From an uncultured Pelagibacteraceae bacterium (GTDB taxonomy: Bacteria > Pseudomonadota > Alphaproteobacteria > Pelagibacterales > Pelagibacteraceae): 64,000 nt of DNA. The notes under the pieces were generated by a model. The model was not told the DNA's origin. It was given only the letters and a program-made list of their open reading frames with translations, and did not search any database. The position numbers and the translations under genes are program-made. How positions within the stretch are numbered: the first letter of the stretch is position 1; each line of letters starts with the position of its first letter. Positions 16,815 through 46,430 of this stretch are shown here, one piece after another. The stretch is taken from positions 1,014 through 65,013 of the forward strand of contig CACIML010000001.1 of the NCBI GenBank assembly GCA_902587735.1. Reading direction: 5' to 3'.

Positions 16815-17294
16815 TTATTCTATAGTAACAGTATTTTTTTCTGGTGTTCCTGTAGATGCTGCACAAGTTGCTATAGTAACAAGCGTTTTAGTGTTCTTAA
16901 CGAATGTTTTTCCTTCGTTACTTGTTGTACAACTAGTCATAGCTGCTGCTTTAGATACTGCTGCCTTAGTTGTATCGTAAGGATTTTTAAAACTTATTAG
17001 AGCTGCTACTGCACCATCTGCAACTTTGTCTGCTGTTTTTCTGTCACTACATGCTAGTTTTTTAGATCCATCTAAATCCATAACATTAGTTTCGCCCATG
17101 TTACATTTTTGAAGTTCTGCTGCTATATACTTTGTGGCTGTTGCATGGTTGGACTTTGCAGATGATTTTTTTGCTCCTTGTGTATACCCACTATAAGCAA
17201 CAACACCTACTGCTGCCAAAATACCTATGATTGCTACTACAACCAACAATTCGATCAGTGTAAAGCCTTTTGAATTTTTGTTTTTTTTATTCAT
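16815..17294 (-). CDS. pilA: Type IVa major pilin (probable expression locus)
   Basis: G|FTLIELL, C-terminal Cys pair; AGAGG RBS and own upstream intergenic region. Confidence 0.8.
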   Translation of the reverse strand: MNKKNKNSKGFTLIELLVVVAIIGILAAVGVVAYSGYTQGAKKSSAKSNHATATKYIAAELQKCNMGETNVMDLDGSKKLACSDRKTADKVADGAVAALISFKNPYDTTKAAVSKAAAMTSCTTSNEGKTFVKNTKTLVTIATCAASTGTPEKNTVTIE

Positions 17295-17531
17295 ATTTTT
17301 TCCTCTTTAATATATTAAAGTTTTTTATACCCTTATTCTCTTTAAATTTAGTGTTAAAGTCTACTCTAATTTGCTCTTATATCAATTCTAAAAAGTCTAA
17401 AATAAACAGTAAATACACGAATTTTTATATATATATGTTTAATTTGAGCTAAATTCATGCCGTTTTTAGAATTTTATTGATTTTATGGTATTTTTACTAA
17501 TATTAAGAGATTTAATTAATAGCATTTATAT

Positions 17532-17831
17532 ATGACTTATAAAGTTACTGAAAAAGGAAACATTTCAACTGTATTTTTGCAAGGTGAAATTGACATGGAT
17601 GTCACTGATAAAGCAAAAGAAGTAATAATGCCATTAGTTGAAGCTAAAAAAGAAGTTCATCTGAATTTAAAAGATGTTCAATACATGGACTCATCTGGAA
17701 TATCTGTATTGATTGAAAGTCATCAAAAAGCAAATGAACTTGGAACAAAAGTAATTCTTAAAGAAATTAGCAAATCAGTTCTTAAAGTTATTATGATGGC
17801 TAAATTAGAACAGGTTTTAAATTTAGATTAG
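17532..17831 (+). CDS. STAS anti-sigma factor antagonist (RsbV/SpoIIAA-like)
   Basis: GEID, LKDVQYMDSSGISVL with phospho-acceptor Ser. Confidence 0.9.
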   Translation: MTYKVTEKGNISTVFLQGEIDMDVTDKAKEVIMPLVEAKKEVHLNLKDVQYMDSSGISVLIESHQKANELGTKVILKEISKSVLKVIMMAKLEQVLNLD

Positions 17832-17834
17832 TTA

Positions 17835-18248
17835 ATGAATATATCAGAATCAAAAGATTTTTTAGTCAGTTCTGCGAGTTTGAAAGAAGTTAGAGCCTTT
17901 TCAAGAGAAATATTAGAAAAAATTAATATCAATGAAGATCTCAAAGATGAGTTGGTTTTAGCAATTGCTGAGGCTGCACAAAATATTGTTAAACATGCTT
18001 ATAAAAATATAGATAGCACAACAGATAAAATGGAGATTAAAATATCTCTTAAAGATTCTGAACTTGAAATAGGTTTTTTTGACAAAGGAAGAGCTGTTGA
18101 TCCTGCTCATGTAAGACATAGAAAAATTGATGATATAAAACCTGGAGGACTAGGAACTTTTTTTATTCAACAAATCATGGATGCGATAGTTTTTAAAAAA
18201 GGTGAAAAACCTTGGATAAATCATCTTGTGTTAACAAAAAGAATATAG
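17835..18248 (+). CDS. RsbW/SpoIIAB-like anti-sigma factor Ser kinase
   Basis: LAIAEAAQNIVKHAY (N box), DKG, PGGLGTFFI. Confidence 0.9.
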   Translation: MNISESKDFLVSSASLKEVRAFSREILEKININEDLKDELVLAIAEAAQNIVKHAYKNIDSTTDKMEIKISLKDSELEIGFFDKGRAVDPAHVRHRKIDDIKPGGLGTFFIQQIMDAIVFKKGEKPWINHLVLTKRI

Positions 18249-18303
18249 TTAACCTTTACTTTACTATTTGACAAAGCCATTTCGCTTTAACAAAAAAAAT
18301 TTA

Positions 18304-19545
18304 TTAACCACCAATAATAGATCCAACATTAAATATTGGAGAGTACATTGCAATCATAAGTCCGCCTATCATGGTACCCATAAATACAATCATAATTGGC
18401 TCTATCATGCTAGACATGTTTTCAACTGATGTATCAAACTCTTCTTCATAATAACCTGACACAGAAGTAAACATTTCATCTAGATTACCTGTTTGTTCTC
18501 CAACTGAAATTAGCTGGCTGAATGTTGGTGGAAAAACCGGTTCTTTTAAAAATAATTTTGTTAAAGTATCTCCAGAGAAAACTCCTTTTTTAACATTTTC
18601 TAAAGCTTGAGTTACAACATCGTTGTTGCTAACTGATTTTGCAATTTCTATAGCTTCTAATAAGTTTACGCCTGCGGCACTTAAGTTACCCATAATTAAA
18701 GCAATTCTTGCTAGCAAGGATTTTAAAATCATGTCTCCAAAAATTGGCATACCAATAACATACTTGTGCCATTTGTATCTAACTGCAGGAATTTTAGTTG
18801 TTGTATATTTAAATACTATAAAAGCTATCAAAGTAATTATACCTAAAGTAGCGCCTCCACTACCCCTCATAAAATTACTTGCTGTCATGATTACTGCAGT
18901 TGGTGTTGGAAGAGCAACTCCCATACCTTCATACATTTTAGCGAAAACTGGAACTACTTTAATTAACATGAACACCATTACAGTAATTGCAGTAGTAAAC
19001 ATTACAGCTGGATACATTAGAGCACCTTTAATTTTCTTTTTTACCTTTTCCCTTTTTTCTAAAGAATCTACTAATTTCAGTAAGAAAACATCCAGTTTAC
19101 CGCTAGCTTCACCAGCTTTTATTAAGTTAATATAAATATTATCAAAAATTTTTGGATATTTTTCAAAGCATTTAGAAAGTGTAACACCACCCTCAAGGCT
19201 TTTTCTAACATCTTCTATAATTTCCTTCATAGTTGGGTGTTCAATTTGATCTCTTAACATTGTTAAAACATTTAGAATTGGAAGACCTGCTTTGACCATA
19301 GTGGCAAATTGTTTGGAAAAAAGCATTACATCTTGTGGCGAAACCTTTTTTTTACCAAAAGAAAATCCACCACCTTTTTTCTTTTCTTTTGAGGTTTTTT
19401 TCTTCTTAGATTTAACTAAGTTTGTAATGATTATCTTTTGTTCTTTAAGTTTAAATGAAGCTTCTTCTTGATTTATGGCTTCAATGTCTCCTTCAACATA
19501 TTTTCCAGCCGAAATACCCTTATAAGTAAAAGTTTCAGATGACAT
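18304..19545 (-). CDS. pilC: Type IV pilus platform protein PilC
   Basis: T2SSF repeats: AGEASGKLD, ALMYP, VGEQTGNLD, IEP. Confidence 0.92.
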   Translation of the reverse strand: MSSETFTYKGISAGKYVEGDIEAINQEEASFKLKEQKIIITNLVKSKKKKTSKEKKKGGGFSFGKKKVSPQDVMLFSKQFATMVKAGLPILNVLTMLRDQIEHPTMKEIIEDVRKSLEGGVTLSKCFEKYPKIFDNIYINLIKAGEASGKLDVFLLKLVDSLEKREKVKKKIKGALMYPAVMFTTAITVMVFMLIKVVPVFAKMYEGMGVALPTPTAVIMTASNFMRGSGGATLGIITLIAFIVFKYTTTKIPAVRYKWHKYVIGMPIFGDMILKSLLARIALIMGNLSAAGVNLLEAIEIAKSVSNNDVVTQALENVKKGVFSGDTLTKLFLKEPVFPPTFSQLISVGEQTGNLDEMFTSVSGYYEEEFDTSVENMSSMIEPIMIVFMGTMIGGLMIAMYSPIFNVGSIIGG

Positions 19546-21314
19546 TATTGTTCCAGAGATAAGACACGTTCATACTCTCTGAAATTTAAATCTCCAGTTA
19601 ATATTAATTCACGTCCCATATCTTGCATAGTCCTAAAACCTTCAGCAAGGGCAATTTTTTTTAATTCTGGTGTTGTTGCTTTTCTAAGTATTGCTTCCTT
19701 AATTTGTTTTGTAACACTTAAAATTTCGTAAATACCCATTCTACCTTTATAACCTGAGTCTTTGCATTTTGGACATCCTTTGCCTCTTTGAACTTTTGCT
19801 CTTGAAGCCTGTTCAACAGTAAAACCAAATTCTGCTAACGCTTTAGGGCTTACATCTGGATCTGGTTCTCTGCACTCTATGCAGGTTTTTCTTGCTAATC
19901 TTTGGGCTAATACCAAACTTACAGCAGCACTTATTAAATAGTCAGGTGTTCCCATATTTTGTAATCTAGTAATTGTACTCGGAGCATCATTTGTGTGGAG
20001 TGTACTAAAAACTAAGTGACCAGTAAGTGCAGCTTTTAATCCTATATCAACAGTTTCTTTATCTCTCATCTCTCCAACTAAAATTATTTCTGGGTCTTGC
20101 CTTAAAAAAGATCGAAGTGCTCTTGCAAAATCATAACCAATATCATCTTTTATTTGTACTTGGCCCACACCATCTAATTCATACTCAACTGGATCCTCAG
20201 CAGTTAAAATATTTAAGTGTGGTTTGGATACTTCTTTAAGAATACTATAAAGAGTGGTTGTTTTACCTGATCCTGTTGGACCTGTGACCAGTACTAAACC
20301 TTGTGTTCCATGGATTGCTTTTCTTAAATTTTTTAAATCTGTTTCTTCAAAATTTAATTGTTCTAAACTAATATCACCTGCATCTTTATTTAGAATCCTC
20401 ATTACTATTCTTTCATTGGTAGCTGTTGGTAAAATAGAAAGTCGAAGATCGACTACTTTTCCTTCTATTTTAAAAGGAATGGCACCATCTTGAGGTAGTC
20501 TTCTCTCTGCAATATCAAGTTTTCCCATGATTTTAAATCTTGTTACTACTGCACCATAATTATCATGTAAAAATTTATTAAATTTTTCCTGTGATGTAAG
20601 CATACCATCTAATCTATAACGAACTCTGGATGAAAATCTGAATGGCTCAATATGAATATCTGAAACCCCTAGTTTAATTGCTTCAGCAACAACGGCTGTT
20701 GAAAATTTTATAACTTCCGATTCATTTTCAAGTGCTTCTATATCTTCTTCTGGTTTATTTTCTAGTACTTCGCCAGCTTCAGCAAGATCAGAATCAAAAG
20801 TTTTTGTTTTTTCTTTTTGTTCTTTTGCATTTTTTTCTTTTATAGACTTAATTGTTGTTTTGTTATCTTTTAATAACTTGTCAATAAAGTCTGAAATTTG
20901 AGAAACTTTGGCCGCGTGAAGTTCAATGTTTTTTTTTGTAATTGTTTTAAGATTTCTCATTAAACTTAATTTCGAAATATCAGAAATTGCAATATGAAGA
21001 GTTTTTCCATCAGGTTCAATTTTAAAAGGCGCAATAAAATTCATATTTATGTAATTTGCGGGTAAAATTTTTTGTAAATCTTTAGAGGCTTCCATTCCTG
21101 TTAAGTCAACAGTTTCTAATGATTGATCTTTAACCAATAAATCTAAAATTTTATCTTCATCAGTTAATTTAAGTTCAAAAACAGCTTCTAATTGTGATTT
21201 TTCTCCCTCATTGGATAATTTTTTGATATTTGGTAAATCTTTTCCTGAGATAACATCTTTATCAATTAAGATGTTAATTAGATTAACCTCAGACTCTCTA
21301 CTAATTTTTAGCAT
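19545..21314 (-). CDS. pilB: Type IV pilus extension ATPase PilB
   Basis: SDIHIEP, DIAERRLPQDG, GPTGSGKTTT, RQDP, STLHTN, two CxxC. Confidence 0.93.
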   Translation of the reverse strand: MLKISRESEVNLINILIDKDVISGKDLPNIKKLSNEGEKSQLEAVFELKLTDEDKILDLLVKDQSLETVDLTGMEASKDLQKILPANYINMNFIAPFKIEPDGKTLHIAISDISKLSLMRNLKTITKKNIELHAAKVSQISDFIDKLLKDNKTTIKSIKEKNAKEQKEKTKTFDSDLAEAGEVLENKPEEDIEALENESEVIKFSTAVVAEAIKLGVSDIHIEPFRFSSRVRYRLDGMLTSQEKFNKFLHDNYGAVVTRFKIMGKLDIAERRLPQDGAIPFKIEGKVVDLRLSILPTATNERIVMRILNKDAGDISLEQLNFEETDLKNLRKAIHGTQGLVLVTGPTGSGKTTTLYSILKEVSKPHLNILTAEDPVEYELDGVGQVQIKDDIGYDFARALRSFLRQDPEIILVGEMRDKETVDIGLKAALTGHLVFSTLHTNDAPSTITRLQNMGTPDYLISAAVSLVLAQRLARKTCIECREPDPDVSPKALAEFGFTVEQASRAKVQRGKGCPKCKDSGYKGRMGIYEILSVTKQIKEAILRKATTPELKKIALAEGFRTMQDMGRELILTGDLNFREYERVLSLEQ

Positions 21315-21315
21315 T

Positions 21316-22851
21316 TTATAAAATTCTTGGAGCTATAAACACCAATAATTCATTTAGGTTATCAGAATTTGACTTACCTTTAAAGAGATTACCTATTATA
21401 GGAACATTGCCAAGTCCTGGAGTTTGGTTCTTACTATTAGATAATTCATTCTTTTTAATTCCGCCAATTACAACAATATCACCATCTGCAACTAGTAATT
21501 TAGTAACTATTTCCATTTTGTTTATCGGTGGTTCATCAGATGCAGCTGCTCTATTAGGAGTGTCATTATTAACCTTTATATTTAACAAGACATTTCCATC
21601 TCCGATTATACTTGGTGTAACTTCTAACTTTAAAGCTGCTTCTTTAAATGAAGTTGATGTTGTTCCTTCAGACGTGGTTTGATACGGTATTTCTTCTCCT
21701 TGGGTAACTGTTGCTACTTGGTTGTCTAAAGTAAATACTTTTGGATTAGATATTGTTTTAGCCATACCTATGCTTTCAAGTGCTGTAATTTCTAATTTAA
21801 GTGCTGCTGAACCTGTTTGTCTTAAAATTCCAATACCACTTGTTGCGCCAATAGCTGGAAAACTTGTAATCGAGTCTGTGGAAGAACCTATAGCAGCTGA
21901 ATCAGTGTCCAAAGTTGCTTCTGAACTTGATCCTGTAATACCGCCCACTCTTTTTCCATTTCTAGTATAAAATCCACCCAATCTTGATCCAAGAGCTCTT
22001 TCAAATAGTGAGTTAGCTTCAACAATAAAAGCTTCTATTAAAACTTGTTTGGTTCTTACATCTATCTCTTTAATTACCTTATCAACAACATCTAAATCTT
22101 TTTCTTTACCTCTTACAATAATTGATCGTGTTGTTGATTCTTCTGTAACTTGTATGGGTGAATAAGATCCTTCACCGGTAGATGTAAATAATTCATCAAT
22201 AGTCGCTTTTGCTTGTGCAGGAGAAATATAATATAATCTAAATATTTCTGAATATATTGGTTCAACACTATCCTCCAACTCAACTTTATTCTTAACAGCA
22301 GCCGCTCTTTCAGATTTATATGATTCTTGCGAAGTCAATGTTTCAGGTGAGTGAATTCTAATCAAATTACTAGTAACATCTATGTCAGATGCATAATTTT
22401 TCATATCCAGCAAAGCTTGGAATGCTTTATCCCATGGAACATCTATTAACTCAGCGCTAATCGCTCCTGCTACTTCATCTCCAACCAAAACATTTATTTC
22501 TCCTATTTTACCCATCAATTTCATTGTTTCCTTAAAGTCTAAATTCTTAAACTTCAAAGTAATTCTTTGTTTTAATAATGGGAACGTGTCAGGAATTAAT
22601 AGATAATTTTTCTGAGCTTCAGATGATATTTTTTTTCTTTTTTTCAATTTTCTTGTGTCACCTTCTACAGGTTTAGGACCCATATCAAGAGTTTTTGAAA
22701 TTTCAGTTTTGCCTGTTTTTCTAATATCGTCTTTAATTAATGGTGTATTATGCTTAAATGGTTTATTCACATTTTTTAAATTTTGACAACCATTTAAAAA
22801 TGAAATCAAAAGTAATAAAACAAATAAATTAATAAATTTTTTAATATTCAT
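21316..22851 (-). CDS. pilQ: Type IV pilus secretin PilQ (lipoprotein-type leader)
   Basis: VPWDKAF, QVLIEAFIVE, QGEEIPY, PGLGNVPIIGNLFK, LLVFIAPRI; lipobox LNGC. Confidence 0.92.
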   Translation of the reverse strand: MNIKKFINLFVLLLLISFLNGCQNLKNVNKPFKHNTPLIKDDIRKTGKTEISKTLDMGPKPVEGDTRKLKKRKKISSEAQKNYLLIPDTFPLLKQRITLKFKNLDFKETMKLMGKIGEINVLVGDEVAGAISAELIDVPWDKAFQALLDMKNYASDIDVTSNLIRIHSPETLTSQESYKSERAAAVKNKVELEDSVEPIYSEIFRLYYISPAQAKATIDELFTSTGEGSYSPIQVTEESTTRSIIVRGKEKDLDVVDKVIKEIDVRTKQVLIEAFIVEANSLFERALGSRLGGFYTRNGKRVGGITGSSSEATLDTDSAAIGSSTDSITSFPAIGATSGIGILRQTGSAALKLEITALESIGMAKTISNPKVFTLDNQVATVTQGEEIPYQTTSEGTTSTSFKEAALKLEVTPSIIGDGNVLLNIKVNNDTPNRAAASDEPPINKMEIVTKLLVADGDIVVIGGIKKNELSNSKNQTPGLGNVPIIGNLFKGKSNSDNLNELLVFIAPRIL

Positions 22852-23290
22852 TTGTTTCCCTTATCTGATTATTAAAATCTATAATCATAAAAGTTTTATC
22901 TTCTTTTTGAAAAATGGCTTCAGTCAATCTTAAATCAACTAATTTTATATCGCCTAAATATTGAAAAAGTGAAAGTGTAATAACATCTCCTGAAGCATTA
23001 ACCAGTGAAATGTAGCTTTCATAGTTTCCAGAAATTAAACCTGCTAATTTATATTTATATAAACTCATTTCATTTTCCAATTCCTCTGGTTCTAAATCAG
23101 TTGTTGTATTGGAAAATGTAGTTGTGCCCTCATTTCCAGCAAAAGGATCATTCAGCGGAACTTCTTCTTCAAATTCAACAGTTGTATTTGTATTTTCAGT
23201 TCCAGAATCTGTGTCATGATTATCTGCAAATGTTATATTGCAAAATAAAAGTACAAATAAAATTATTATAAAATTTTTAAAAAAATTCAT
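22841..23290 (-). CDS. PilP-like protein
   Basis: Position between pilO and pilQ; DPF motif, YKLAGLI. Confidence 0.6.
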   Translation of the reverse strand: MNFFKNFIIILFVLLFCNITFADNHDTDSGTENTNTTVEFEEEVPLNDPFAGNEGTTTFSNTTTDLEPEELENEMSLYKYKLAGLISGNYESYISLVNASGDVITLSLFQYLGDIKLVDLRLTEAIFQKEDKTFMIIDFNNQIRETNEY

Positions 23291-23930
23291 CTGGTAATCC
23301 CACTATTGTTAACTCACCTGTTGCTATTATAGCTCCAGTTGAATCGTTTTGCACTATACTTATTGTTTCTTTATCAAAATTAAGCATTTTTTTAGATTTT
23401 GCTAAGGCTCTTTTGAACTTAATATAGCCTAAAAAATTCCCTTTTATTTCATATGTTACTGGAATTTTGTAATAAGAAACATTTTGCATTTCGGTCATAT
23501 TTTCAGCTTGTTCAGCAACACCTTCTTTTAATACGGCTTTTGGTTTTTTCTTCTCAATTTTTGATATAACAAGTCCGTTTACTCCAGCATATCTACTTAA
23601 ACTTTTATATAAACCTTCAACCTCAGCTTTTGAATGGAATAGCTTAGAACTCTCATTAAATTCTGGCTGTTTGTTCTTAATAGTTTTTTTATAAGTAGTT
23701 ATTTCTGTGTTCATCTGATTAATTTCTTCTTGTTTTAATACTTTGTCCTGAAATGTTTCTTTCTTTTTTTGAACTATAGGATTTAAGATAGAATAATAAC
23801 CAATTAAAAATATAAGAACTGCAAAAAAACCAGCTCCATATTTAATTAAAGTCTTTTTATCAATTGATTCTAATTTTGCTTTAATATCTTCTAGTTTTAT
23901 ATTTTTTAAATCTATGTTTTTTAAATCCAT
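23277..23930 (-). CDS. pilO: PilO-like alignment protein
   Basis: Single TM plus coiled coil; YYKIPV..EIKGNF. Confidence 0.75.
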   Translation of the reverse strand: MDLKNIDLKNIKLEDIKAKLESIDKKTLIKYGAGFFAVLIFLIGYYSILNPIVQKKKETFQDKVLKQEEINQMNTEITTYKKTIKNKQPEFNESSKLFHSKAEVEGLYKSLSRYAGVNGLVISKIEKKKPKAVLKEGVAEQAENMTEMQNVSYYKIPVTYEIKGNFLGYIKFKRALAKSKKMLNFDKETISIVQNDSTGAIIATGELTIVGLPDEFF

Positions 23931-26255
23931 TTAAATATCCTCCACAACACAGGCTATCCTGAAGCCTTTCATTTTTGGTTTTCCCGCTTCTTCGCCTTCA
24001 GGCAACATCATGCTTGCAAGGGAAGCTTGTAAAATTAATTTTTTAGAATTTAAATTATTTATAAGTTTTAAAATATCTTGGTCTGTAGATGCTATGCCTA
24101 CAATTACAATTTGATTTGATCCATCATAGTCAATTGAGTTAAATTTAACTCTTTTAGGCACTGCAGAAGCTATCTGTGCTAGTATTCTAAAGCTAAATTT
24201 TTTATTCGATTGAATTGATTGGCTCAGTTTTAAAGACTTAATTATAATTGCAACTTCTTTTGCATATTTATTTTTTTCTAAAGTTTTTAATTCGTGCTCT
24301 TGAACTACCTGGTCATAATCTGTTATTTTTTTATTTAAAGTTTGAATTTGCCAAAATGAAAAAGCAAATAAAATTACATAGATAGCTACGACTGCTCCAA
24401 CTACTCCTTTAAAAGCAAAGTTAGAAAAAATCTTTGCTTTCTTTTGTGCTATCATACTATGTCTATTAGGTAGCAAGTTAATATTTTTTACTGCAGTTAC
24501 AAATTTGTAGTAGCCAAACACATCAAGTTTTCTAAATGCTAATCCTATTACTGTTGAAAGATATGATCTGTTTTCTATATTAACTCTTTCTTCAATCTGA
24601 GCTGGAACTTTAATTTCTTTAATAGGATCAAATAAATTAAAACCAGTATTAACTAAATTTTTTCTAAAGCTTCCTAGATATGTATTGACGTTTTTTAAGT
24701 TTGAAACAACTCTTAAGCTACGAATTCTTTTTTCATATTTTGTTTCAAAATCTTGAATAGCTTGTTTTACTTGTGTGGTATATCTTCTAACTAAAGCATC
24801 CATCTCTTCTTGGTTATCTGAATTTAACAATGTAGTTCTATCCTGACCTCTAATAAAAATATCTGTAATGATTGGATTGTTTTCATATAATATCATTACA
24901 TAATTTTCATCTAATCCAAATTCTAATACTGCTGTTAAATTACTTTCTTCAATGGATCCACCGATTTGATTAATTTGGTCCACTGCAGATTTAAGTGCGA
25001 AACATTTAACATCAATTATCACTGCATTTAATCCACCTTTTTTAATTATAGATGTATAACTATTTATGTCTGATAATTTTGATGCAACAAATAAAATATC
25101 CATTGTGTTTGCAGTTTTATTTTTATTAATCACTTGATGAAAAATAGAATAGTCATTTAAATTATCTGTTAACTGTACTAAATTTTCCCAAAGTGAATCT
25201 GTATCAATTGCTTTTTTTAACTCCTCTTCATTCATTAAAGGTGCTGTAACCACTCTAATAATTGCACTAGTAACCGGAATTGCTATTGCCGCGTTAGTTG
25301 TGGTGATTTTTGATTTTTGTAATGCTACTTGAAGTTCTCCGGCAATTTTATCTGGATTTTCTAAAACAGTGGAATTATCAGGCAATCCTTCTACTGGATG
25401 AATAAAAAATTTATCTAAAACCCATTGATTGTTTTTATTATTAGATAATTGAGCTAATCTTATCTCTGTTGCAGCTAGTTCAACACCAACTATTTCTTCT
25501 CCTTGAACAGCAGATTTTCCAAGTTTTGCCTTAAAGAAACTTTCAAGTTTTTTTCTAATACCTTTTTTTCCTGATGATGAATTTTTTGCTACTGAATCTT
25601 GTTTCCCAAAACTTGGTTTTTTAAATTTAATATTTTTAAATTTTTCGAGAATGTTTGAAGCGGATTTTGTTTCTAAAGACTCTTTTTTAGGTTCTGCTTG
25701 AGTTGAAACAACATCTTCAGTGGCAAGTTCTGGTTTTTTTTCTGCTTCAGTAACAGATTCTGTTTGTTCAGATGTTTCTATTACTGGTGGCGTTGTCTGT
25801 TTTGGCGCGATAGAAGGTTGTTCACTTGTTGTTTGCGCTGTTTCTTGAGAAATTTTTTCTTCTTTTTCTTTACTTGCATGAACAAAATCAAACCACTTCT
25901 CTAATATCGGTATTGCATCATCTAGATTAGGAGTACCTGATGAAGAAATCTTTTGCTTTCCATCAATATATAGTCTGCCAACCCAATTTTTTGATTTTAG
26001 TTCACCTTTGTACTTATCTTGCCTTACATATATATGTAATCTTCCATCTTTTTTGTGAATTACTTCGTTTTCTTTTTTTTCTTCTACTTTAGATTGAACT
26101 TCAGTTTTATTTTCATCGTCAACGGTAGCAGAATCAGAAGATTCAGTAGTCTGACTTTCAGGTTTAGCAGATTCTCCTTCAAGTTGATCTTTTTCATTAA
26201 CAACTTCTTCTACTTTATCTTCTAAATTAATTTTATCTTTTTCTTCGTCGCTCAT
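23931..26255 (-). CDS. PilM-PilN fusion with acidic N-terminal extension and small integrase-arm-like domain
   Basis: Actin-like PilM (VGVEL, AIAIP, IIDV, IGLA) running into PilN (NINLLP, TM, coiled coil, IAS.VP..V). Confidence 0.85.
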   Translation of the reverse strand: MSDEEKDKINLEDKVEEVVNEKDQLEGESAKPESQTTESSDSATVDDENKTEVQSKVEEKKENEVIHKKDGRLHIYVRQDKYKGELKSKNWVGRLYIDGKQKISSSGTPNLDDAIPILEKWFDFVHASKEKEEKISQETAQTTSEQPSIAPKQTTPPVIETSEQTESVTEAEKKPELATEDVVSTQAEPKKESLETKSASNILEKFKNIKFKKPSFGKQDSVAKNSSSGKKGIRKKLESFFKAKLGKSAVQGEEIVGVELAATEIRLAQLSNNKNNQWVLDKFFIHPVEGLPDNSTVLENPDKIAGELQVALQKSKITTTNAAIAIPVTSAIIRVVTAPLMNEEELKKAIDTDSLWENLVQLTDNLNDYSIFHQVINKNKTANTMDILFVASKLSDINSYTSIIKKGGLNAVIIDVKCFALKSAVDQINQIGGSIEESNLTAVLEFGLDENYVMILYENNPIITDIFIRGQDRTTLLNSDNQEEMDALVRRYTTQVKQAIQDFETKYEKRIRSLRVVSNLKNVNTYLGSFRKNLVNTGFNLFDPIKEIKVPAQIEERVNIENRSYLSTVIGLAFRKLDVFGYYKFVTAVKNINLLPNRHSMIAQKKAKIFSNFAFKGVVGAVVAIYVILFAFSFWQIQTLNKKITDYDQVVQEHELKTLEKNKYAKEVAIIIKSLKLSQSIQSNKKFSFRILAQIASAVPKRVKFNSIDYDGSNQIVIVGIASTDQDILKLINNLNSKKLILQASLASMMLPEGEEAGKPKMKGFRIACVVEDI

Positions 26256-28046: not shown

Positions 28047-28048
28047 GA

Positions 28049-32553: not shown

Positions 32554-32618
32554 TAAATCATTATGGTTATAAAACCACTTTAATTATTGCTGATTAAAAA
32601 GTACATTATTGAAAAATT

Positions 32619-37554: not shown

Positions 37555-38097
37555 TTAGCACCAACCCGGCATTTCAAATACTATTCCACCGTATGATCCA
37601 ACATCTCCAGGATTTACTTGTGACTTTCTTAATGAAGATGAAGTGTCCCAAAGATCTGGGTTTAATTCTTTGTCAACATAAGTTCTTATATAAATTTTAC
37701 ACTTATTAAGACCTGTGTTTATATCAACGGCAATAGCTTCTTCAATATAACCACCCGTGAGCACCATGCATCCTCTCGTTGGTCTATAAACATTTGTACA
37801 AACATTATTATTCACATGAGCTAGTACTTTATTGGCAAAATCTGATTTACTGTTCGAACTGCAGCTATAAGTAACATTATTTCCTGAAGCGTCTTTAAAC
37901 ATTGCTTCACTACCAATTTCACAATCCATAGATTTGGTTACTAAAAACTTTACAACCAAATCATGATTAGATTTAATAGTTACATCTTTGGCTCTTGCTG
38001 TATACCCACTATACGCAACTACTCCTACAGCAGCTAATATTCCAATGATGGCAACAACGACCAATAACTCTATTAGTGTAAAGCCTTTTTGTTTCAT
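37555..38097 (-). CDS. Type IV pilin, array copy 1
   Basis: G|FTLIELLVVVAIIGILAAVGVVAYSGYT. Confidence 0.9.
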   Translation of the reverse strand: MKQKGFTLIELLVVVAIIGILAAVGVVAYSGYTARAKDVTIKSNHDLVVKFLVTKSMDCEIGSEAMFKDASGNNVTYSCSSNSKSDFANKVLAHVNNNVCTNVYRPTRGCMVLTGGYIEEAIAVDINTGLNKCKIYIRTYVDKELNPDLWDTSSSLRKSQVNPGDVGSYGGIVFEMPGWC

Positions 38098-38119: not shown

Positions 38120-38890
38120 TTAACTTTTTGTAGAAACTGTAAATTTAACTTTTTTATCAGAATAATCTCTTCCAATTCCAGTTACACCGCCATCTTTGAT
38201 CCATTTAAGAGTTCCCGCTGCTCCCATACTGTTTGTGCAAGAAATCTGCCAAGTACCTTTGCCATCTGCTTGTAGAGAATATGAACCTTCACAAGTTCCA
38301 TCATTATTAGGTAGAGCTAAATTTAATGTGCCTTTATAATCTGCTTCACTAAACTCTACAGTTCCAGCAATTAAATCTGAATAACCTTCCCAGCTTAATG
38401 CTAAAGATCTTTCACCCTCTAGTGAATATTTTTTTACAACCTTCTCTTCCTTTTTCTTTTCTATTTTTTTAGTTTCTCCTCCCAAAAACCCTAGTTCTGT
38501 CAATTTAGCTTTAATTTCTGCATCGCTCCACTTGCTATTAATTCTGGATGCTTTACCTTTGGCAGGATTAATTCCATTTTTCCATTTTATTGACCTTCCT
38601 CTTGCAAACGTACCACATTCAGTATTGGTTTCTCTTTCGCATTGCTTAATTCCTTGGCTATCACTGCCTCTGCAGTTGCCAGCCCCATCTGGGCAATAAT
38701 AATAAATTGCCCACGATGAATCATTTGAAATTATAAATAACTCAGGAGCTTCAGAATGTTTTCCTCTTATATACTTCATAAAATAATCTACTGCCCAAGG
38801 TTCAAGTTTAAGCTCACCTTTTCCAGGTTTGCTAAAAGCATTACTGCTTAACAGTAAACCCAGAACCACGATCCCTAAAAGCTTTTTCAT
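38120..38890 (-). CDS. Secreted Cys-containing protein with MKKLLG leader
   Basis: Signal peptide MKKLLGIVVLGLLL; YYYCP...C...C...C..FA..R.I.W domain shared with 46520..47158. Confidence 0.7.
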   Translation of the reverse strand: MKKLLGIVVLGLLLSSNAFSKPGKGELKLEPWAVDYFMKYIRGKHSEAPELFIISNDSSWAIYYYCPDGAGNCRGSDSQGIKQCERETNTECGTFARGRSIKWKNGINPAKGKASRINSKWSDAEIKAKLTELGFLGGETKKIEKKKEEKVVKKYSLEGERSLALSWEGYSDLIAGTVEFSEADYKGTLNLALPNNDGTCEGSYSLQADGKGTWQISCTNSMGAAGTLKWIKDGGVTGIGRDYSDKKVKFTVSTKS

Positions 38891-39004
38891 CATCCAAGAT
38901 CTTAGCACAAAAAATCTGCTCACACTATATCCATGCTTGAACTGCAAATACTCACTTTTTAATTCGAATTAAGATTGTATTATAAGGATAAATAACCGGG
39001 GGCT

Positions 39005-40212: not shown

Positions 40213-40294
40213 TTAAAATCCTAACGCTGTGTGTCATATGTGAGTCAAGAATTTTCCAATTTTAGTATGCCAAATATTCTGATAACCTTTGGAT

Positions 40295-40567
40295 ATGAAA
40301 AAACTTTTAGGGATCTTGGTTCTGGGTTTGTTGTTTAGTGGGAATGTTTATGCAGAATGGTTAGTTGTTGTTAAAAACAAAATAGATGAAAATATTTTTA
40401 TAAAAAGAACCAAAATAACTGAAGATGAAGCTGTTGAAGCAGCTTTAAAAGGTTGTAGGATTTTATATCTACATAGAGTAGAGGGAAGTTCGATGAAACC
40501 TGCTAAAAAAAAAAAGATGCTAGAGCTGATGGAAGCTTGCTATGTTCATTCAGTTATAGAGCAATGA
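40295..40567 (+). CDS. Small secreted protein with MKKLLG leader
   Basis: Signal peptide MKKLLGILVLGLLFSGNVYA; two Cys. Confidence 0.65.
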   Translation: MKKLLGILVLGLLFSGNVYAEWLVVVKNKIDENIFIKRTKITEDEAVEAALKGCRILYLHRVEGSSMKPAKKKKMLELMEACYVHSVIEQ

Positions 40568-41052
40568 ACCAAAAAGCCTTCACCCTAATAGAACTCCTAG
40601 TCGTTGTTGCTATCATCGGCATTCTAGCTGCTGTAGGTGTGGTTGCTTATAATGGGTATACGTCTAGTGCCAAGAAAAAAGTTGCAACATCAAACCATTA
40701 TACTGTCGTAAAATACATTACCACAGAAATAAACAGATGCGACATTGGTGAATCTGAAGCAATGAATGGTAATCTTGTATGTTCTGGTATGACGACAGAC
40801 TCTATTGCGAAAGCAGCTGTTAAAACTTTATCTGATTTTAAAAATCCTTATGGCAAGGGTAAAGCAGATATAAATGAGAACGCTGTCACAAATAATAATG
40901 AAGATGTCAAAGATACATGGGATATGGGTTATGTTCGTCTAGAACCAACTACTGGTAGGATTTATATCCATACCTGTCCTTATTTTGACACTAGTCAATA
41001 TGGACAATGTCCGAACAATAATATTTTGCAAAGTATTATACTTGTAGATTAA
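40564..41052 (+). CDS. Type IV pilin, array copy 2
   Basis: MNQKA|FTLIELL...AYNGYT. Confidence 0.9.
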   Translation: MNQKAFTLIELLVVVAIIGILAAVGVVAYNGYTSSAKKKVATSNHYTVVKYITTEINRCDIGESEAMNGNLVCSGMTTDSIAKAAVKTLSDFKNPYGKGKADINENAVTNNNEDVKDTWDMGYVRLEPTTGRIYIHTCPYFDTSQYGQCPNNNILQSIILVD

Positions 41053-41618
41053 TGAACCAAAAAGCCTTCACCCTAATAGAACTCCTAGTCGTAGTAGCCA
41101 TCATAGGTATTTTGGCTGCCGTAGGGGTAGTTGCTTATAGTGGGTATACGAGTGCAGCTAAAGAGAGAATAGTAAAAAATAATTTTTCATTTGCTAAAAA
41201 ATTCATGCAACAACAAATAATGCAATGTGAAATTAATGGTAGTTTTTCTTGGTTAGATTACGATACCAGCAATAAAAAGCCATTAGGTCCAAAAATAATA
41301 AATTGTAGAAGTAGCGGATTAGATTATATGACATGGCAAAAGCATTTTATGTCTTCAGGCTATATGAACCCTTATGGCGAACAAACAAAAACTTTTACAG
41401 GAGGCAATGTGCAGAATTCTTGGATGGGAACGGGAAAATTTGGCATTATTGGAGTTTCAACTTTTTCCAATATGCAGACTTTAACACCAGTAGGAGCAGT
41501 TGTTCTTGGAGTAAAAGGTCAGTGGAATAATAAAAATTGCGAGGTAGAACTCCATTTTTTAGCGGCGATTAATGACAAGGAAATCTTGGGTCCAGAAAAG
41601 ATTTGTTGGGATAGATGA
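41052..41618 (+). CDS. Type IV pilin, array copy 3
   Basis: MNQKA|FTLIELL...AYSGYT. Confidence 0.9.
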   Translation: MNQKAFTLIELLVVVAIIGILAAVGVVAYSGYTSAAKERIVKNNFSFAKKFMQQQIMQCEINGSFSWLDYDTSNKKPLGPKIINCRSSGLDYMTWQKHFMSSGYMNPYGEQTKTFTGGNVQNSWMGTGKFGIIGVSTFSNMQTLTPVGAVVLGVKGQWNNKNCEVELHFLAAINDKEILGPEKICWDR

Positions 41619-41687
41619 AGATTGTTGTAACTTATTCAAGATTTCTAAATTATTGATCACACATTGGGCACAGTGGTAAAATGTTTT

Positions 41688-42245
41688 ATGAAACAAAAAG
41701 GCTTCACCCTAATAGAACTCTTAGTTGTCGTAGCCATCATCGGTATTCTAGCTGCAGTAGGGGTTGTTGCTTATAGTGGGTATACAAGTGCTGCCAAAAT
41801 TAGAGTCATTAAATCCCAACATGCTCAGGTTGTCAAATTTATGAATGCCGAATTAGCTAAATGTGAAATTACAGATAAAGCAATGAGTGGCTATTTAAAT
41901 TGTTCAGATAAAAAAAATGGTAGTAAAGTTATTCAAGCTACGACAATGGCGATGAAAGATTTGAAAAACCCTTTTAAAAACTCTTGTCATACTGTTAGAC
42001 CTAACAATCATAGTGGTCAAAATACTTCAGGATCTCAATCAGTAAATTGTTATCAAAGTAGAAATTATATTCGTAATGAATTAGAAGATGGAGGTTTTGT
42101 AAGTTTAAGAACTCAAAGAGAAACCATAGGAAAATATAAATATTGGACCATACATGTAAATACTTGTTATTCTCAAAAAGATTGTGGCCCAAATAAAATT
42201 AGTGATGAAGTTAGGATTACAGAGAATACTTTGTTAAATCCTTAA
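41688..42245 (+). CDS. Type IV pilin, array copy 4
   Basis: MKQKG|FTLIELL...AYSGYT. Confidence 0.9.
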   Translation: MKQKGFTLIELLVVVAIIGILAAVGVVAYSGYTSAAKIRVIKSQHAQVVKFMNAELAKCEITDKAMSGYLNCSDKKNGSKVIQATTMAMKDLKNPFKNSCHTVRPNNHSGQNTSGSQSVNCYQSRNYIRNELEDGGFVSLRTQRETIGKYKYWTIHVNTCYSQKDCGPNKISDEVRITENTLLNP

Positions 42246-42282: not shown

Positions 42283-42786
42283 ATGAAAAAAAATTTTAAC
42301 ACAAAAAAAGGATTCACATTAATAGAGCTACTAGTCGTTGTTGCAATCATCGGTATTTTAGCTGCAGTAGGGGTTGTTGCTTATAATGGGTATACGAGTT
42401 CTGCTAAAGTATCAACGCATAAATCAAATCATACTTTAGTTGTGAAATATATTTCTGCAGAGATTATGAAATGTGTCATAGGTGAAGAAAAGGCAATGGA
42501 TGGAAACCTTAAATGTTCAGAAAGATTAGATGTCCATGAAGGAAAACCAGGATTAAAAACTGTTAATGCAGCAATTACAGCTCTTTCAGATATGAAGAAT
42601 CCAGATGCAACACCAGGATATAAAAATAATGCGCCAAGAAATAGTAAGGATGCAACAAGTAATTATGATCTAGGTTTTGTAAATATTGATGTATCATCAA
42701 ACACTATTAGCGTTGTAACTTGTTATCAATTAGACTGTAAATCAGGTACTGATAATAAACTTATCAGTAATATTAATTTAGAATAG
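42283..42786 (+). CDS. Type IV pilin, array copy 5
   Basis: KKG|FTLIELL...AYNGYT. Confidence 0.9.
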   Translation: MKKNFNTKKGFTLIELLVVVAIIGILAAVGVVAYNGYTSSAKVSTHKSNHTLVVKYISAEIMKCVIGEEKAMDGNLKCSERLDVHEGKPGLKTVNAAITALSDMKNPDATPGYKNNAPRNSKDATSNYDLGFVNIDVSSNTISVVTCYQLDCKSGTDNKLISNINLE

Positions 42787-42810
42787 ACCTCGGGCTTATG
42801 AGTCCCGTGC
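42786..42810 (-). other. tRNA(CAT) anticodon-arm fragment (att-like)
   Basis: Minus strand GCACGGGACTCATAAGCCCGAGGTC; shares TCGGGCTTATGAGT with 39005-39018. Confidence 0.7.
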
Positions 42811-43320
42811 CTAATCTAAATAAACCTTATTTTCTAGTCTGTTTTTACTATCACTGCAGGGTAATTTAAAACAAGTACAAAAAGTTACATGGTCCATACT
42901 ATCATGGCCTTTTATCCAAACATACCCTAGGTACACATCACTATAAGACCCTGAACAAACACCAGGTTGAGATGCGGTTTGGCTGTGCAAATGTGTCTTA
43001 AAAGGATTTATAAATTGATTGTTGTCCCAATGAGTGCGTAAATGAAATGCAAAAAAATCCCATTTGTTAGGAGAATAACAAGCTATGTTGTATACAGTCT
43101 TATCGTTCCCTTTTTTCATTAAGTTTACACTTCCATTCAAATTACATTCTTGATTTATTAAGCTAACTTTTTTTACAAATGCAGCATGATTTGATTTAAC
43201 AACATTAGTTTTAGCACTAGCCGTATACCCATTATAAGCAACCACTCCTACTGCAGCTAGAATGCCGATGATAGCAACAACGACTAGGAGTTCTATTAGA
43301 GTGAAGGCTTTACGGTTCAT
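42811..43320 (-). CDS. Type IV pilin, array copy 6
   Basis: MNRKA|FTLIELL...AYNGYT. Confidence 0.9.
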   Translation of the reverse strand: MNRKAFTLIELLVVVAIIGILAAVGVVAYNGYTASAKTNVVKSNHAAFVKKVSLINQECNLNGSVNLMKKGNDKTVYNIACYSPNKWDFFAFHLRTHWDNNQFINPFKTHLHSQTASQPGVCSGSYSDVYLGYVWIKGHDSMDHVTFCTCFKLPCSDSKNRLENKVYLD

Positions 43321-43838
43321 CTAACGGTAATTGTAGTTTCGAGTCTATTTGAATCTTGTGAACAAGGTGTTTTAAAACATGAGCAAAATTCTATATTATT
43401 TGTTCCCGATGGGTAAACAGCATAAACTTTACCCACTCTATAATCTGTTTTACATTCTGGTGCATAACCGGAACTTGTTTTGCCATTTCTCTGCCAAACA
43501 CCTTCGTTATTATATGGATCTTTAACTACAGCGCCTGAATTATATAAATCATTACTTACACTTGCTTGGAAAAAATTCATCAAACTTATATCATAACAAG
43601 GAACATCGTAGATAGTTTGATTGCCCCATACTTTTTTTAACTTAACAGTATTTGATATGTTGCACATAGCTGCTACCTCTGCTGATTTTTTTGTTATTAT
43701 TTTAAAATGGGTCTTTGCAACACTAACTTTAGCGCTAGCCGTATACCCATTATAAGCAACCACACCTACAGCAGCCAAAATACCGATGATGGCTACTACG
43801 ACTAGGAGTTCTATTAGGGTGAAGGCTTTTTGGTTCAT
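43317..43838 (-). CDS. Type IV pilin, array copy 7
   Basis: MNQKA|FTLIELL...AYNGYT. Confidence 0.9.
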   Translation of the reverse strand: MNQKAFTLIELLVVVAIIGILAAVGVVAYNGYTASAKVSVAKTHFKIITKKSAEVAAMCNISNTVKLKKVWGNQTIYDVPCYDISLMNFFQASVSNDLYNSGAVVKDPYNNEGVWQRNGKTSSGYAPECKTDYRVGKVYAVYPSGTNNIEFCSCFKTPCSQDSNRLETTITVR

Positions 43839-43846
43839 GGTTTACA

Positions 43847-44323
43847 TTAATCAATTAAAAAAGTTTCATATAAAGCTGTGGTTTCTCCATAACACGTGGA
43901 CACTCTTACTAAAGTACTATTGCCAGATTTAATATTGCTAACCATAATACCTCCACTGTTGTACTGAAGATCGCAATGTTGTTTTGGATGCGGACCATTT
44001 AAAGCAACAGAATTTTCTTGCCAAGATTTATATGGATTATTAAATTTTTTATCAAAAGCTTTGACTGCTGCTTTTCCTATTTCATTGGTAGTTTTTCTAT
44101 CAGAACATTTAAGGTTGCCATCCATGACATATTCGTGTCCCAAACTGCATTTTATAAGTTCCGATGTAATATAATTAATAGTTTCTCTATGCTGTTTTTT
44201 TACTACTTGTTTTTTGGCACCACTCGTATACCCACTATAAGCAACTACTCCTACTGCAGCTAGAATACCTATGATGGCTACGACAACTAAGAGTTCTATT
44301 AGGGTGAAACCCCCTTGTTTCAT
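43847..44323 (-). CDS. Type IV pilin, array copy 8
   Basis: MKQGG|FTLIELL...AYSGYT. Confidence 0.9.
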   Translation of the reverse strand: MKQGGFTLIELLVVVAIIGILAAVGVVAYSGYTSGAKKQVVKKQHRETINYITSELIKCSLGHEYVMDGNLKCSDRKTTNEIGKAAVKAFDKKFNNPYKSWQENSVALNGPHPKQHCDLQYNSGGIMVSNIKSGNSTLVRVSTCYGETTALYETFLID

Positions 44324-44788
44324 AGAAACATCTTACCATTTAACCTCATCATATACTAATGTATTTAAATCTATGTAAGTTGAAAATGTACAGTACCCTC
44401 CTGCTTTTTCCCAAATGTATGTTCTTCCTTCTTTACCATAATTACAACAAACTCCAGCCCAAGCTTGGTTGTCTTGATCTTTAGCTTTAGCAGTTGAGTC
44501 TGCATAAGGTGTTTTAATATCTTTAAAGTGATGTTGAAAAGATGGGCAATCAAATGCAGAACTTTTTTTTGTAAAATTTTGAATTGCACCACCATTAACT
44601 TTTTTGTTTATGCTCCCATTTATTTCATACTCTGCAACCATAGTTGCAAATTGTCTCACCATCATTTTGTGATTTTGTTTAGAAACAGTTTTTTTCGCAC
44701 CACTCGTATACCCACTATAAGCAACTACTCCTACTGCAGCTAGAATACCTATGATGGCTACGACAACTAAGAGTTCTATTAGGGTGAA
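44217..44788 (+). repeat. 92-bp identical direct repeat (pilin constant regions)
   Basis: 44217-44308 equals 44697-44788. Confidence 0.9.
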
Positions 44789-44812
44789 GGCTTTAGTTTT
44801 TAAATCAATCAT
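44333..44812 (-). CDS. Type IV pilin, array copy 9
   Basis: MIDLKTKA|FTLIELL...AYSGYT. Confidence 0.9.
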   Translation of the reverse strand: MIDLKTKAFTLIELLVVVAIIGILAAVGVVAYSGYTSGAKKTVSKQNHKMMVRQFATMVAEYEINGSINKKVNGGAIQNFTKKSSAFDCPSFQHHFKDIKTPYADSTAKAKDQDNQAWAGVCCNYGKEGRTYIWEKAGGYCTFSTYIDLNTLVYDEVKW

Positions 44813-45287
44813 CTGAAAGTGTATCTTGATATGTTTTACCATCACACATTGTGGTCAATCTTACATCATAATAAGTTGTATCCTCAAAAACGTAAGTTCC
44901 ATCTCCATTTTTGGAAGGGGTTCCACTATTTCCTGTTATAGGGTATCCGCCCGAAAAATTTGTATTATAAGGATCTTTAAAAAAGTTTGTAAAGTGCCAA
45001 GCAATTGCGAATCCAAATCTATCAAATCTGCTACTACATGAATATTTAAACTCTGCACCTTGAACATTATTAACCATTGCTTTCCTAAGAGTAATTTCAT
45101 CATGTAGTAAACAATAAGCTCGTTTTTCCATAATCATTTTCTTTAAAGTATTATGATTATTAATACATGCAACTTTCTTTGCATTCTTCGTATACCCACT
45201 ATAAGCAACCACTCCTACTGCAGCTAGAATACCTATGATTGCAACGACAACTAAGAGTTCTATTAGGGTGAAACCATTTCGTTTCAT
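44805..45287 (-). CDS. Type IV pilin, array copy 10
   Basis: MKRNG|FTLIELL...AYSGYT. Confidence 0.9.
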   Translation of the reverse strand: MKRNGFTLIELLVVVAIIGILAAVGVVAYSGYTKNAKKVACINNHNTLKKMIMEKRAYCLLHDEITLRKAMVNNVQGAEFKYSCSSRFDRFGFAIAWHFTNFFKDPYNTNFSGGYPITGNSGTPSKNGDGTYVFEDTTYYDVRLTTMCDGKTYQDTLSDD

Positions 45288-45289
45288 AT

Positions 45290-45922
45290 TTATTTAATAA
45301 GTTTTAGTATACTTTTTTTTACTGTTTCTGAAATAATCAATATACCATTCTCATTTGGGTGCAGCCCATCACTTAGATTTAACTCTGGTTTAAGATATAC
45401 TTCATCAAGTAAAAAAGGAATTAATAAAATGTCATATTTTTTTGCTAATTTAGGAAATATTTTATCGAATTTTTTTTTATAACTTAGTCCATTTGAAGGT
45501 GTTGCAAGCATTCCCGCTAAAATTATATTAATTTTTTTATCATGTATAATTTTAATCATTTTGTCTAGATTTTGCTCTGTTTGTTCAGGATCAATTCTCC
45601 TCAACATATCATTTGCTCCTAAACCTAAAATAATTAAATCTACATTTAGTTCAGATAAAATTTTTTCTAATCTAGTTAAACCATCTAATGAAGTATTTCC
45701 TGAAATACTTCCATTAATAACTTCAAAGTTATAACCTTTAGATTTAAGATTTTCTTCTAAAACAACAGATAAATGATGCTCTTTAGATAAACCATATCCT
45801 GACATTAAGCTGTCACCAAATAACAAAATTTTTTCTATAGTAATTTTTTTACTATCATCGCTACAACTAAAAAGTATCAGGCTGAAAAAGCTAAAAAAAA
45901 AAATCTTTAAAATGTTTTTCAT
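45290..45922 (-). CDS. SGNH/GDSL arylesterase (TesA-like), probable lipoprotein
   Basis: FGDSL, ISGNTS, LGAND, DGLHPN; LFSC lipobox-like. Confidence 0.9.
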   Translation of the reverse strand: MKNILKIFFFSFFSLILFSCSDDSKKITIEKILLFGDSLMSGYGLSKEHHLSVVLEENLKSKGYNFEVINGSISGNTSLDGLTRLEKILSELNVDLIILGLGANDMLRRIDPEQTEQNLDKMIKIIHDKKINIILAGMLATPSNGLSYKKKFDKIFPKLAKKYDILLIPFLLDEVYLKPELNLSDGLHPNENGILIISETVKKSILKLIK

Positions 45923-45926
45923 TTTT

Positions 45927-46430
45927 TTATTTTAAACTCACATCGATATCTTTGCTTTCTGTGTCGCCAGCTGCACATCCATCTTTGAAACAAGCTCTAA
46001 TCTGAAGTTTTGTACCATTTACGCTTATACTTACTTGGCCAGGTGTAAAACCTGTTCTTGATCTTATACAAGGCAGTGTTGTGTCATATGGATTTCTTAA
46101 AGATTTTAAAACTCCTTCATCTATACCTGCTGTAACAGATCCTCTCAAAGATCTTACATTAGCCAGTGCTTGCATTGTATTAAACGCACCTGTTGCAGTA
46201 TTGTATTTAGAACAACTTAGTTCGTTATCCATTACACTAGAGTTTCCTGTGCTGCATAGTAAAAGTTCGCTCTCAATATATTTAATAGTTTTTTTATAAC
46301 AAGCTTTAGCTGAACTTGCCTTGGCACCACTCGTATACCCACTATAAGCAACTACTCCTACTGCAGCTAGAATTCCGATGATTGCTACGACAACTAATAA
46401 TTCTATAAGAGTAAAGCCTTTTGTTTTCAT
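45927..46430 (-). CDS. Type IV pilin, array copy 11
   Basis: MKTKG|FTLIELL...AYSGYT. Confidence 0.9.
   Translation of the reverse strand: MKTKGFTLIELLVVVAIIGILAAVGVVAYSGYTSGAKASSAKACYKKTIKYIESELLLCSTGNSSVMDNELSCSKYNTATGAFNTMQALANVRSLRGSVTAGIDEGVLKSLRNPYDTTLPCIRSRTGFTPGQVSISVNGTKLQIRACFKDGCAAGDTESKDIDVSLK

Follow-up and report, generated by a model that had tools for sequence, protein, structure and literature searches.

Does a short DNA motif that recurs in the pilin genes of a SAR11 bacterium mark a site at which variable pilin heads are cut and exchanged? The question is raised by a 64,000-nt stretch (the window; contig CACIML010000001.1, positions 1,014 to 65,013, assembly GCA_902587735.1) from an uncultured Pelagibacteraceae bacterium belonging to SAR11, one of the most abundant marine bacterial groups. 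The window contains a full type IVa pilus locus with 12 major-type pilin genes, in each of which the sequence GC[T/G]TATA[A/G]TGGGTATAC lies where the constant 5′ part of the gene gives way to a variable 3′ part, the head. An initial annotation had proposed that heads are swapped at this DNA-selected site. Comparative data support head swapping by homology and do not support a recombinase site. The motif is the 3′ edge of a constant coding block of ~84-100 bp that comprises the leader and codons 1-28, and the heads are probably swapped as cassettes by homologous recombination anywhere in this block.

All 12 copies of the motif were verified at the positions first reported, 4 on the plus and 8 on the minus strand, and a search of the genome (859 kb, 68% complete) that tolerated up to 2 mismatches found no 13th copy. 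The genes concerned, together with a neighbouring pilin lacking the motif, are as follows.

16371..16787, minus strand: PilE/ComP-like minor pilin without the motif (PF07963; PF16732 at 29.5 bits, cut-off 27.3)
16815..17294, minus strand: major pilin at the pilA position; motif 17182-17198; codons 1-21 of pilA type, only codons 22-28 of array type
37555..38097, minus strand: pilin; constant block 37999-38082, motif 38000-38016
40537..41052, plus strand: array pilin (ATG 40564); constant block 40579-40662, motif 40645-40661
41052..41618, plus strand: array pilin; constant block 41067-41150, motif 41133-41149
41664..42245, plus strand: array pilin; constant block 41703-41786, motif 41769-41785
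42283..42786, plus strand: array pilin; constant block 42313-42396, motif 42379-42395
42811..43320, minus strand: array pilin; constant block 43222-43305, motif 43223-43239
43317..43838, minus strand: array pilin; constant block 43740-43823, motif 43741-43757
43847..44323, minus strand: array pilin; constant block 44225-44308, 92 nt identical to the block of the upstream gene; motif 44226-44242
44333..44845, minus strand: array pilin; constant block 44705-44788, motif 44706-44722
44805..45287, minus strand: array pilin; constant block 45189-45272, motif 45190-45206
45927..46430, minus strand: array pilin; constant block 46332-46415, motif 46333-46349

The motif codes for Ala23-Tyr-Asn/Ser-Gly-Tyr-Thr28 of the mature pilin. 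PF07963 scored above its cut-off in 12/12 motif-bearing pilins, the class III signal peptide (G/A-F-x-x-x-E) and hydrophobic helix of type IVa pilins were present, and one window pilin searched against solved pilins gave N-terminal matches; every copy has its own start and its own constant block. Gly26 is GGG in 12/12 copies, while GGG makes up 5.2% of the Gly codons genome-wide and 17/385 of those preceding TAT, so that this invariance is not codon chance. Codon counts confirmed the initial observation, and its companions held equally: the upstream codons for Gly14 and Gly20 vary, the PilE-like gene reads GGC TAT GTT at that position, and identity drops past codon 28-32. The GGG bias is real but not the singular anomaly it had been taken for. 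Ile12 is ATC in 12/12 copies (genome 6.1%), with a −log10P of 14.6 compared to 15.4 for GGG26, both assuming independent copies, which these are not; CTC6 occurs in 8/12 (genome 1.4%), ACG28 and TTC1 in 9/12 each, and ACC and CTA are likewise common in the constant blocks. Of the motif letters, TAT, GCT and AC represent the most frequent codons or are dictated by the amino acid sequence. The entire 84-nt block is common to the array pilins at the DNA level, and the motif is its downstream edge.

Movement of heads was followed in a final set of 561 pilins from 239 records, reduced from 636 by removal of duplicates; pilins outside the major-type protein pattern had been left out before any count. 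Flank analyses used 510 pilins, the remaining 51 of the 561 lacking enough flank, and clustering yielded 20-24 independent pairs. Among 44 cross-genome pairs with heads of at least 95% DNA identity, the upstream sequence was unrelated in 25, kept in 12 and intermediate in 7. In a window-matched control, 35/35 cross-genome array pairs sharing codons 35-74 (at least 95%) kept a homologous head 3′ end, and the upstream window was unrelated in 26 of these 35 pairs (24 clusters). Near-identical heads thus stand behind different neighbours across genomes, and the initial view that variable heads are exchanged was upheld. Past the shared head, the stop codon, spacer and leader of the next gene, judged by eye, were usually shared and often overlapping, with differences restarting in the constant block of that next gene (also by eye), which by comparison indicates that the moving unit is the head, the stop and the start and leader of the following gene. 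Four head-sharing and two upstream-sharing pairs came from single-contig genomes. Altogether, 293 array heads fell into 162 families at 70% identity.

Four metagenome runs compared with window positions 40300-46600 yielded contigs holding head pieces, many at 99-100%. We set these contigs aside as evidence on breakpoints, since they break at repeats as any repeat would and the sides of the joints are shorter than 40 nt. Contigs of all four runs departed from the window sequence at 42762 and 43850, near head 3′ ends, so that not all joints fall within the constant block. Four different loci (L021, L065, L180 and L189) end in one and the same truncated pilin stub, FTLIEL followed by F/L-RYRI.

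If crossovers occurred at a fixed motif, genes sharing the same upstream sequence would be expected to be identical up to codon 22. Instead, 20 of the 24 independent upstream-sharing pairs with different heads (71 pairs in total) showed excess mismatches in codons 1-21, five GGG/GGG pairs among them, and 4/24 fitted a late break. The fitted end of upstream linkage fell within the leader, which held 62% of the mass; head linkage was fitted to begin at codon 29. On the upstream side, a geometric model anchored at the 5′ edge (log-likelihood −658) was ahead of a uniform (−667) and a motif-centred model (−674). On the head side, the values were −524 for a geometric model anchored at edge 29, −528 for the motif-centred and −544 for the uniform model, and this side cannot separate a site from the end of homology, so that the upstream side decides. 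GGG was wholly absent from 10/20 head-sharing pairs, and codon 26 differed in 6/20. Head linkage starts just after the motif, in agreement with the initial annotation, but upstream linkage ends elsewhere; a crossover confined to a DNA-selected site was supported neither by the 5′ end of linkage nor by the swaps without GGG. Its fallback, a gene-conversion boundary, came close to the reading that we favour.

Linkage inside the block itself is short-ranged. Across 103 pairs with heads of at least 90% amino acid identity, synonymous identity was mostly 0.8-0.9 from codon 29 onward and near the paralogue background in codons 1-28. Where both flanks matched at 95% or more, the block alone differed at 5-13 sites in 3/5 array-type pairs, and six pilA-type pairs differed at 0-3 sites. 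Linkage within the blocks of a genome (241 pilins, 40 records) had a mean z of 4.7 at distances up to 3 nt, 0.7 at 7-12 nt and 0.2-0.3 beyond. Distinct constant blocks numbered 305 of 310, and differences in codons 1-24 were 852 synonymous to 1 non-synonymous, a ratio due in part to the construction of the protein pattern. In five single-contig genomes, blocks differed at 10.7 of 84 positions within and 10.8 between genomes (p 0.36). By comparison, the constant block is a fine mosaic linked to neither flank.

The window array blocks showed 10.7-11.4 differences from those five genomes and 8.8 among themselves; two blocks were identical over 92 nt, and copies on opposite strands were only 3-5 nt apart. 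The pilA gene differed from the array copies by 15.2 positions in codons 1-21 and by 1.3 in codons 22-28. Homogenisation is unusually strong in this genome, and this explains the motif in 12/12 genes. Conversion from neighbour to neighbour as a rule was considered and found weak, the differences being 12.0 for adjacent, 11.5 for non-adjacent same-array and 12.2 for other-array blocks.

Could the mosaics be artefacts, with no ongoing exchange, the motif reflecting shared ancestry under protein constraint and the chimeras arising through repeats during assembly or amplification? Most records are indeed short-read single-cell or metagenome assemblies, whose contigs break at repeats. A chimera, however, joins at an identical stretch and cannot yield a block unlike both parents, as was observed; with 305/310 blocks distinct, six informative pairs from single-contig genomes and a mosaic scale of 6-12 nt, we regard this explanation as very improbable.

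A trans-acting site-specific recombinase swapping or inverting heads at the motif, in the manner of a shufflon or of Piv, would fit the location of the motif at the constant/variable junction in 12/12 genes, the convergent layout of the window array (4 plus, 6 minus), the few pairs that break at codons 22-26 and the presence of one tyrosine recombinase in the genome. It conflicts with the loss of upstream linkage at the block 5′ end, which includes GGG/GGG pairs, with the replacement of the block alone and with mixed strands in just 1/32 loci. No recombinase was found in the window, confirming the initial annotation, and each of five single-contig motif-rich genomes had one tyrosine recombinase match, far from the arrays. 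The only one of the window genome (L319 1057-2007, G000:C26) scored below the XerC, XerD and integron-integrase NCBIfam cut-offs and looks Cre-like, judging by its motifs. A dif search of the genome gave hits only at control level; 8/12 motif copies read ATAG where the dif arm has ATAA. Relatives at 65-69% were found in G004, G024 and G013, which have zero, zero and one pilin match, and the array-bearing genomes G042 and G052 had only 26-31% matches; the suggested trans-acting enzyme co-occurring with arrays was therefore not borne out. Searches of five genomes, four of them single-contig, found IS110/Piv (PF01548) in 0/5 (controls positive 6/14), and serine resolvase was likewise found in 0/5 (controls positive 12/14). 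Already largely refuted, the recombinase is the least probable explanation among those weighed here.

Two further roles of the motif were discarded. A DNA uptake sequence was excluded by the copy number, only 12 and all inside pilin genes, not hundreds genome-wide, and an internal TATAAT promoter received no support (39 promoter-like matches, of which 2 lie on motif copies, compared to 43.6 in shuffled sequence).

Conservation of the motif in relatives was limited. Its pattern matched 32/401 genomes, 31/274 others of the same genus and 0/60 of a second family, while a protein search gave pilin matches in 27/61 genomes. Codon-free scans, covering 137 of about 710 genome and 130 of about 4000 metagenome stretches, found GGG in 61/191 genome pilins and 61/147 metagenome pilins; in motif-blind samples, 82/176 array pilins had it compared to 3/55 pilA. 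Arrays ranged from all-GGG to no-GGG, most being mixed, and the motif was absent from many (such as 0/8 in G042, 0/5 in G029, 0/4 in G012), a pattern that the initial annotation had itself counted as evidence against a selected site. Nor did synonymous conservation peak at the motif as predicted: the departure from genome codon use was largest at Leu6 (2.65 bits), Ile12 (2.06) and Val8 (2.02), where the rare codons CTC, ATC and GTC are more strongly biased than GGG at Gly26 (1.24). The pilA gene stood apart. GGG occurred in pilA of 2/14 genomes holding both pilin classes, motif-rich ones included, pilA blocks were further from array blocks than array blocks from each other in 14/14, and the best pilA-to-array head identity was 76% once a misclassified array gene (L321) was set aside. 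By this comparison, pilA lies mostly outside the exchange pool.

Four-fold-site G+C reached 0.27 in array blocks, about double the value in heads (0.14) and pilA blocks (0.15). Within array blocks, codons 1-14 had C at 0.27 and G at 0.03 of four-fold sites, and codons 15-28 had G at 0.19 and C at 0.045, a split not seen in heads or pilA. Selection of rare codons, GGG included, for translation or messenger RNA structure (for instance, to keep array pilins scarce), with shuffling as a separate matter, would explain why they mark array pilins and not pilA, and the C-rich then G-rich layout suggests pairing. We nevertheless consider this quite unlikely: 0/14 consensus pairs were compensatory, RNA folding energy equalled that of third-base permutations (mean z −0.2) with DNA folding weaker still, and the predicted pairs 6-78, 18-60 and 33-63 showed no linkage. 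A hairpin or cruciform in the constant block was rejected, as fold tests on both strands and compensation and linkage tests gave it no support.

How, then, would homologous exchange operate? We infer that RecA performs it and that the lack of MutS permits blocks of 85-90% identity to recombine. RecA was found in 5/5 genomes and MutS in 0/5 (controls positive 11/14); the accessible text of PMC12374537 links loss of mutS/mutL to promiscuous recombination, proposed for SAR11 genomes generally. A crossover between two blocks would add, remove or rearrange heads, and non-crossover events would convert the block alone and homogenise blocks. The boundary at codon 28/29 would lie where homology ends. 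It may also reflect the structural division of the protein, pilin residues 1-28 forming the pilus-core helix and later residues packing on the head; a single-sequence AlphaFold model of the pilin (mean predicted local distance difference test score, pLDDT, 48) was too poor and was not used. GGG would belong to a set of about ten rare codons in a consensus maintained by exchange, perhaps aided by GC-biased conversion, with which the doubled four-fold G+C of array blocks is consistent. Through its heads the population would have a large choice of pilus surfaces, which might plausibly serve in defence against phages or in adhesion. As a separate observation, in two genomes recA faces a pilin array at a distance of about 1 kb or less (G229:C1:193024-193809 and G179:C1:226020-226805), an arrangement not seen in G169, G097 and G000.

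Several points weigh against homologous exchange anywhere in the block. An earlier head-side fit put a motif-plus-10% mixture ahead of a truncated geometric by 4 log units, and in GGG-bearing pairs head linkage was abrupt at codon 29 (decay rate 1 per codon, 10 pairs). For turnover of this speed, ~90 bp at 86% identity make a small target, and an additional step may initiate exchange. The change from C-rich codons 1-14 to G-rich codons 15-28 is not accounted for by plain GC bias. ComEC (PF03772) was found in 0/5 genomes (G229, G169, G179, G097 and G000), even though a complete type IV pilus and a ComP-like pilin are present, and DNA uptake via the cell's own pilus is therefore not supported. 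Many of the records were assembled from single cells or metagenomes, some genomes were chosen for carrying the motif, and exchange was deduced from finished products in different genomes.

Some of these points would be met if the motif, for example through the GTATAC palindrome that needs GGG TAT AC, were cut or nicked and thereby initiated or accelerated homologous exchange in GGG lineages, the exchange then spreading over the block. Besides the abrupt head linkage, both edges were tighter in GGG than in non-GGG pairs, codons 22-28 were uniform in GGG-rich genomes (0.6-2.0 differences of 21 nt), and CCGG restriction sites offer a precedent in gonococcal pilin variation according to the accessible part of PMC13321361. 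GTATAC is not avoided in the genome, however (84 seen, 72 expected), non-GGG lineages also swap, codon 26 varies among head-sharing pairs, and bias at codons 6, 12 and 8 exceeds that at 26. We judge such a site unlikely.

A bolder version of the homology reading, speculative but conceivable, is an integrase-free generator in which self-chaining cassettes recombine via a coding handle selected as the target of a dedicated short-patch pathway, the motif being its 3′ edge and an MKKLLG leader a second handle. If true, it would explain a species-spanning surface library in a streamlined genome nearly without mobile elements.

The remaining features of the locus are listed below.

18304..26255, minus strand: type IV pilus machinery (PilC, PilB, PilQ, PilO-like, PilM-PilN fusion)
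28705..37335, plus strand: PilT-like ATPase, minor pilins, PilX and, at the PilY1 position, a putative PilY1 of 1394 aa without a Pfam match
38120..38947, minus strand: MKKLLG-leader exported protein (ATG 38890), directly upstream of a pilin; no Pfam or NCBIfam match
40289..40567, plus strand: another gene with the MKKLLG leader (ATG 40295); its stop overlaps the start of the first plus-strand array pilin
42787..42810, strand not assigned: short imperfect inverted repeat, G+C-rich, separating the convergent half-arrays; resembles a terminator by eye but absent from the terminator-scan list
47609..48376, minus strand: prepilin peptidase PilD (PF06750, PF01478)

The MKKLLG signal-peptide leader has GGG in 27/30 copies, under a pattern leaving that base free. 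Its genes lie in or beside pilin arrays (examples are L069, L220, L285, L296, L300 and L176), with 2-6 copies in 4/5 genomes; at five loci the leader is reduced to 12-13 codons and overlaps the pilin start, and contig depth over it was 3000-4000 in four metagenomes. Around the pilus locus lie two ammonium transporter-SpoIIE phosphatase fusions (8761-11064 and 13849-16011), STAS and kinase genes (17532-18248), a GAF-SpoIIE gene (48545-49837) and, at 49838-57036, three large proteins (845, 901 and 607 aa) without a Pfam match, possibly autotransporters. The array at 40537-46430 is the sole locus with pilins on both strands among 32 loci with at least 4 pilins. None of the listed metagenome contigs bridged the convergent junction near 42790, so that the layout could be a genuine inversion or an assembly artefact.

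SAR11 pilin expansions have been described as "metaparalogs", with 2-25 pilins per genome and almost no mobility genes, and the variable regions as devoid of attC sites, homologous replacement at fixed chromosomal sites being suggested (accessible parts of 10.64898/2026.10.07.757358 and PMC2217521). Neither head swapping inside pilin genes nor a cassette unit is described in these parts, the accessible parts of PMC5069720 and PMC13712998 hold nothing on SAR11 pilin head swapping, and searches of open papers, without subscription papers and preprint supplements, yielded no account of such swapping via the constant region. The renewal of SAR11 variable surface genes without mobile elements was called unresolved in 2026 (10.64898/2026.10.07.757358). 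In the SAR11 pilin arrays, the point of exchange can be located within genes, heads moving across species-level genomes via a ~90-bp coding handle. The array is a concrete locus, testable by polymerase chain reaction, at which recombination in natural populations could be measured, together with a possible turnover of phage receptors. A caution follows as well: invariant rare codons in paralogue arrays can stem from homogenisation and not from a recombinase site.

Among known systems, integron arrays resemble the SAR11 pilin arrays in being built from single-gene units of ~500 bp in tandem, which can be acquired, lost or rearranged. In SAR11, unlike in integrons, the joint is protein-coding homology; the integron integrase model TIGR02249 reached 20.5 bits against a cut-off of 265, and no conserved hairpin fold was found on either strand. 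Pilin inversion by Moraxella Piv needs an IS110-family invertase and two inverted genes. There, too, the crossover falls in the conserved 5′ coding region of type IV pilins, whereas PF01548 was found in none of five SAR11 genomes. In the accessible account of the Francisella pilA deletion (PMC2941502), repeats at pilin genes likewise mediate pilin loss, by one deletion between two repeats, compared to a many-head library across genomes in SAR11. The R64 shufflon, in the accessible part of 10.1101/2024.10.25.620183, resembles the SAR11 arrays in relocating variable 3′ ends behind the constant 5′ part of pilin-type genes, but it uses 12+7+12-bp sfx sites with a conserved core and right arm, an adjoining invertase gene and inversion, none of which was seen in SAR11. 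There, no tyrosine invertase is adjacent, crossovers are not confined to a site, GGG occurs in only 82/176 array pilins elsewhere, mixed strands in 1/32 loci, and each window copy has a start and constant block of its own, in place of one constant 5′ part followed by headless 3′ segments.

The closest likeness is to Neisseria pilE/pilS, where the accessible text of PMC13321361 describes RecA-type patchwork among pilin copies bounded by short homology and without a site-specific recombinase. In SAR11, the copies are complete genes rather than silent donors without a 5′ end (523/542 distinct pilin starts open frames of at least 70 codons, and 19 are stubs), and pilA, its blocks set apart in 14/14 genomes, does not behave as a single expression locus that receives donor sequence. 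Unlike in Neisseria, the constant and not the variable region is the mosaic, whole heads move, pilA is mostly outside, and the pool spans species-level genomes. With RecA in 5/5 genomes and linkage decaying within 6-12 nt, in keeping with short patchwork, the SAR11 system would, by analogy, work most like gonococcal patchwork pilin exchange.

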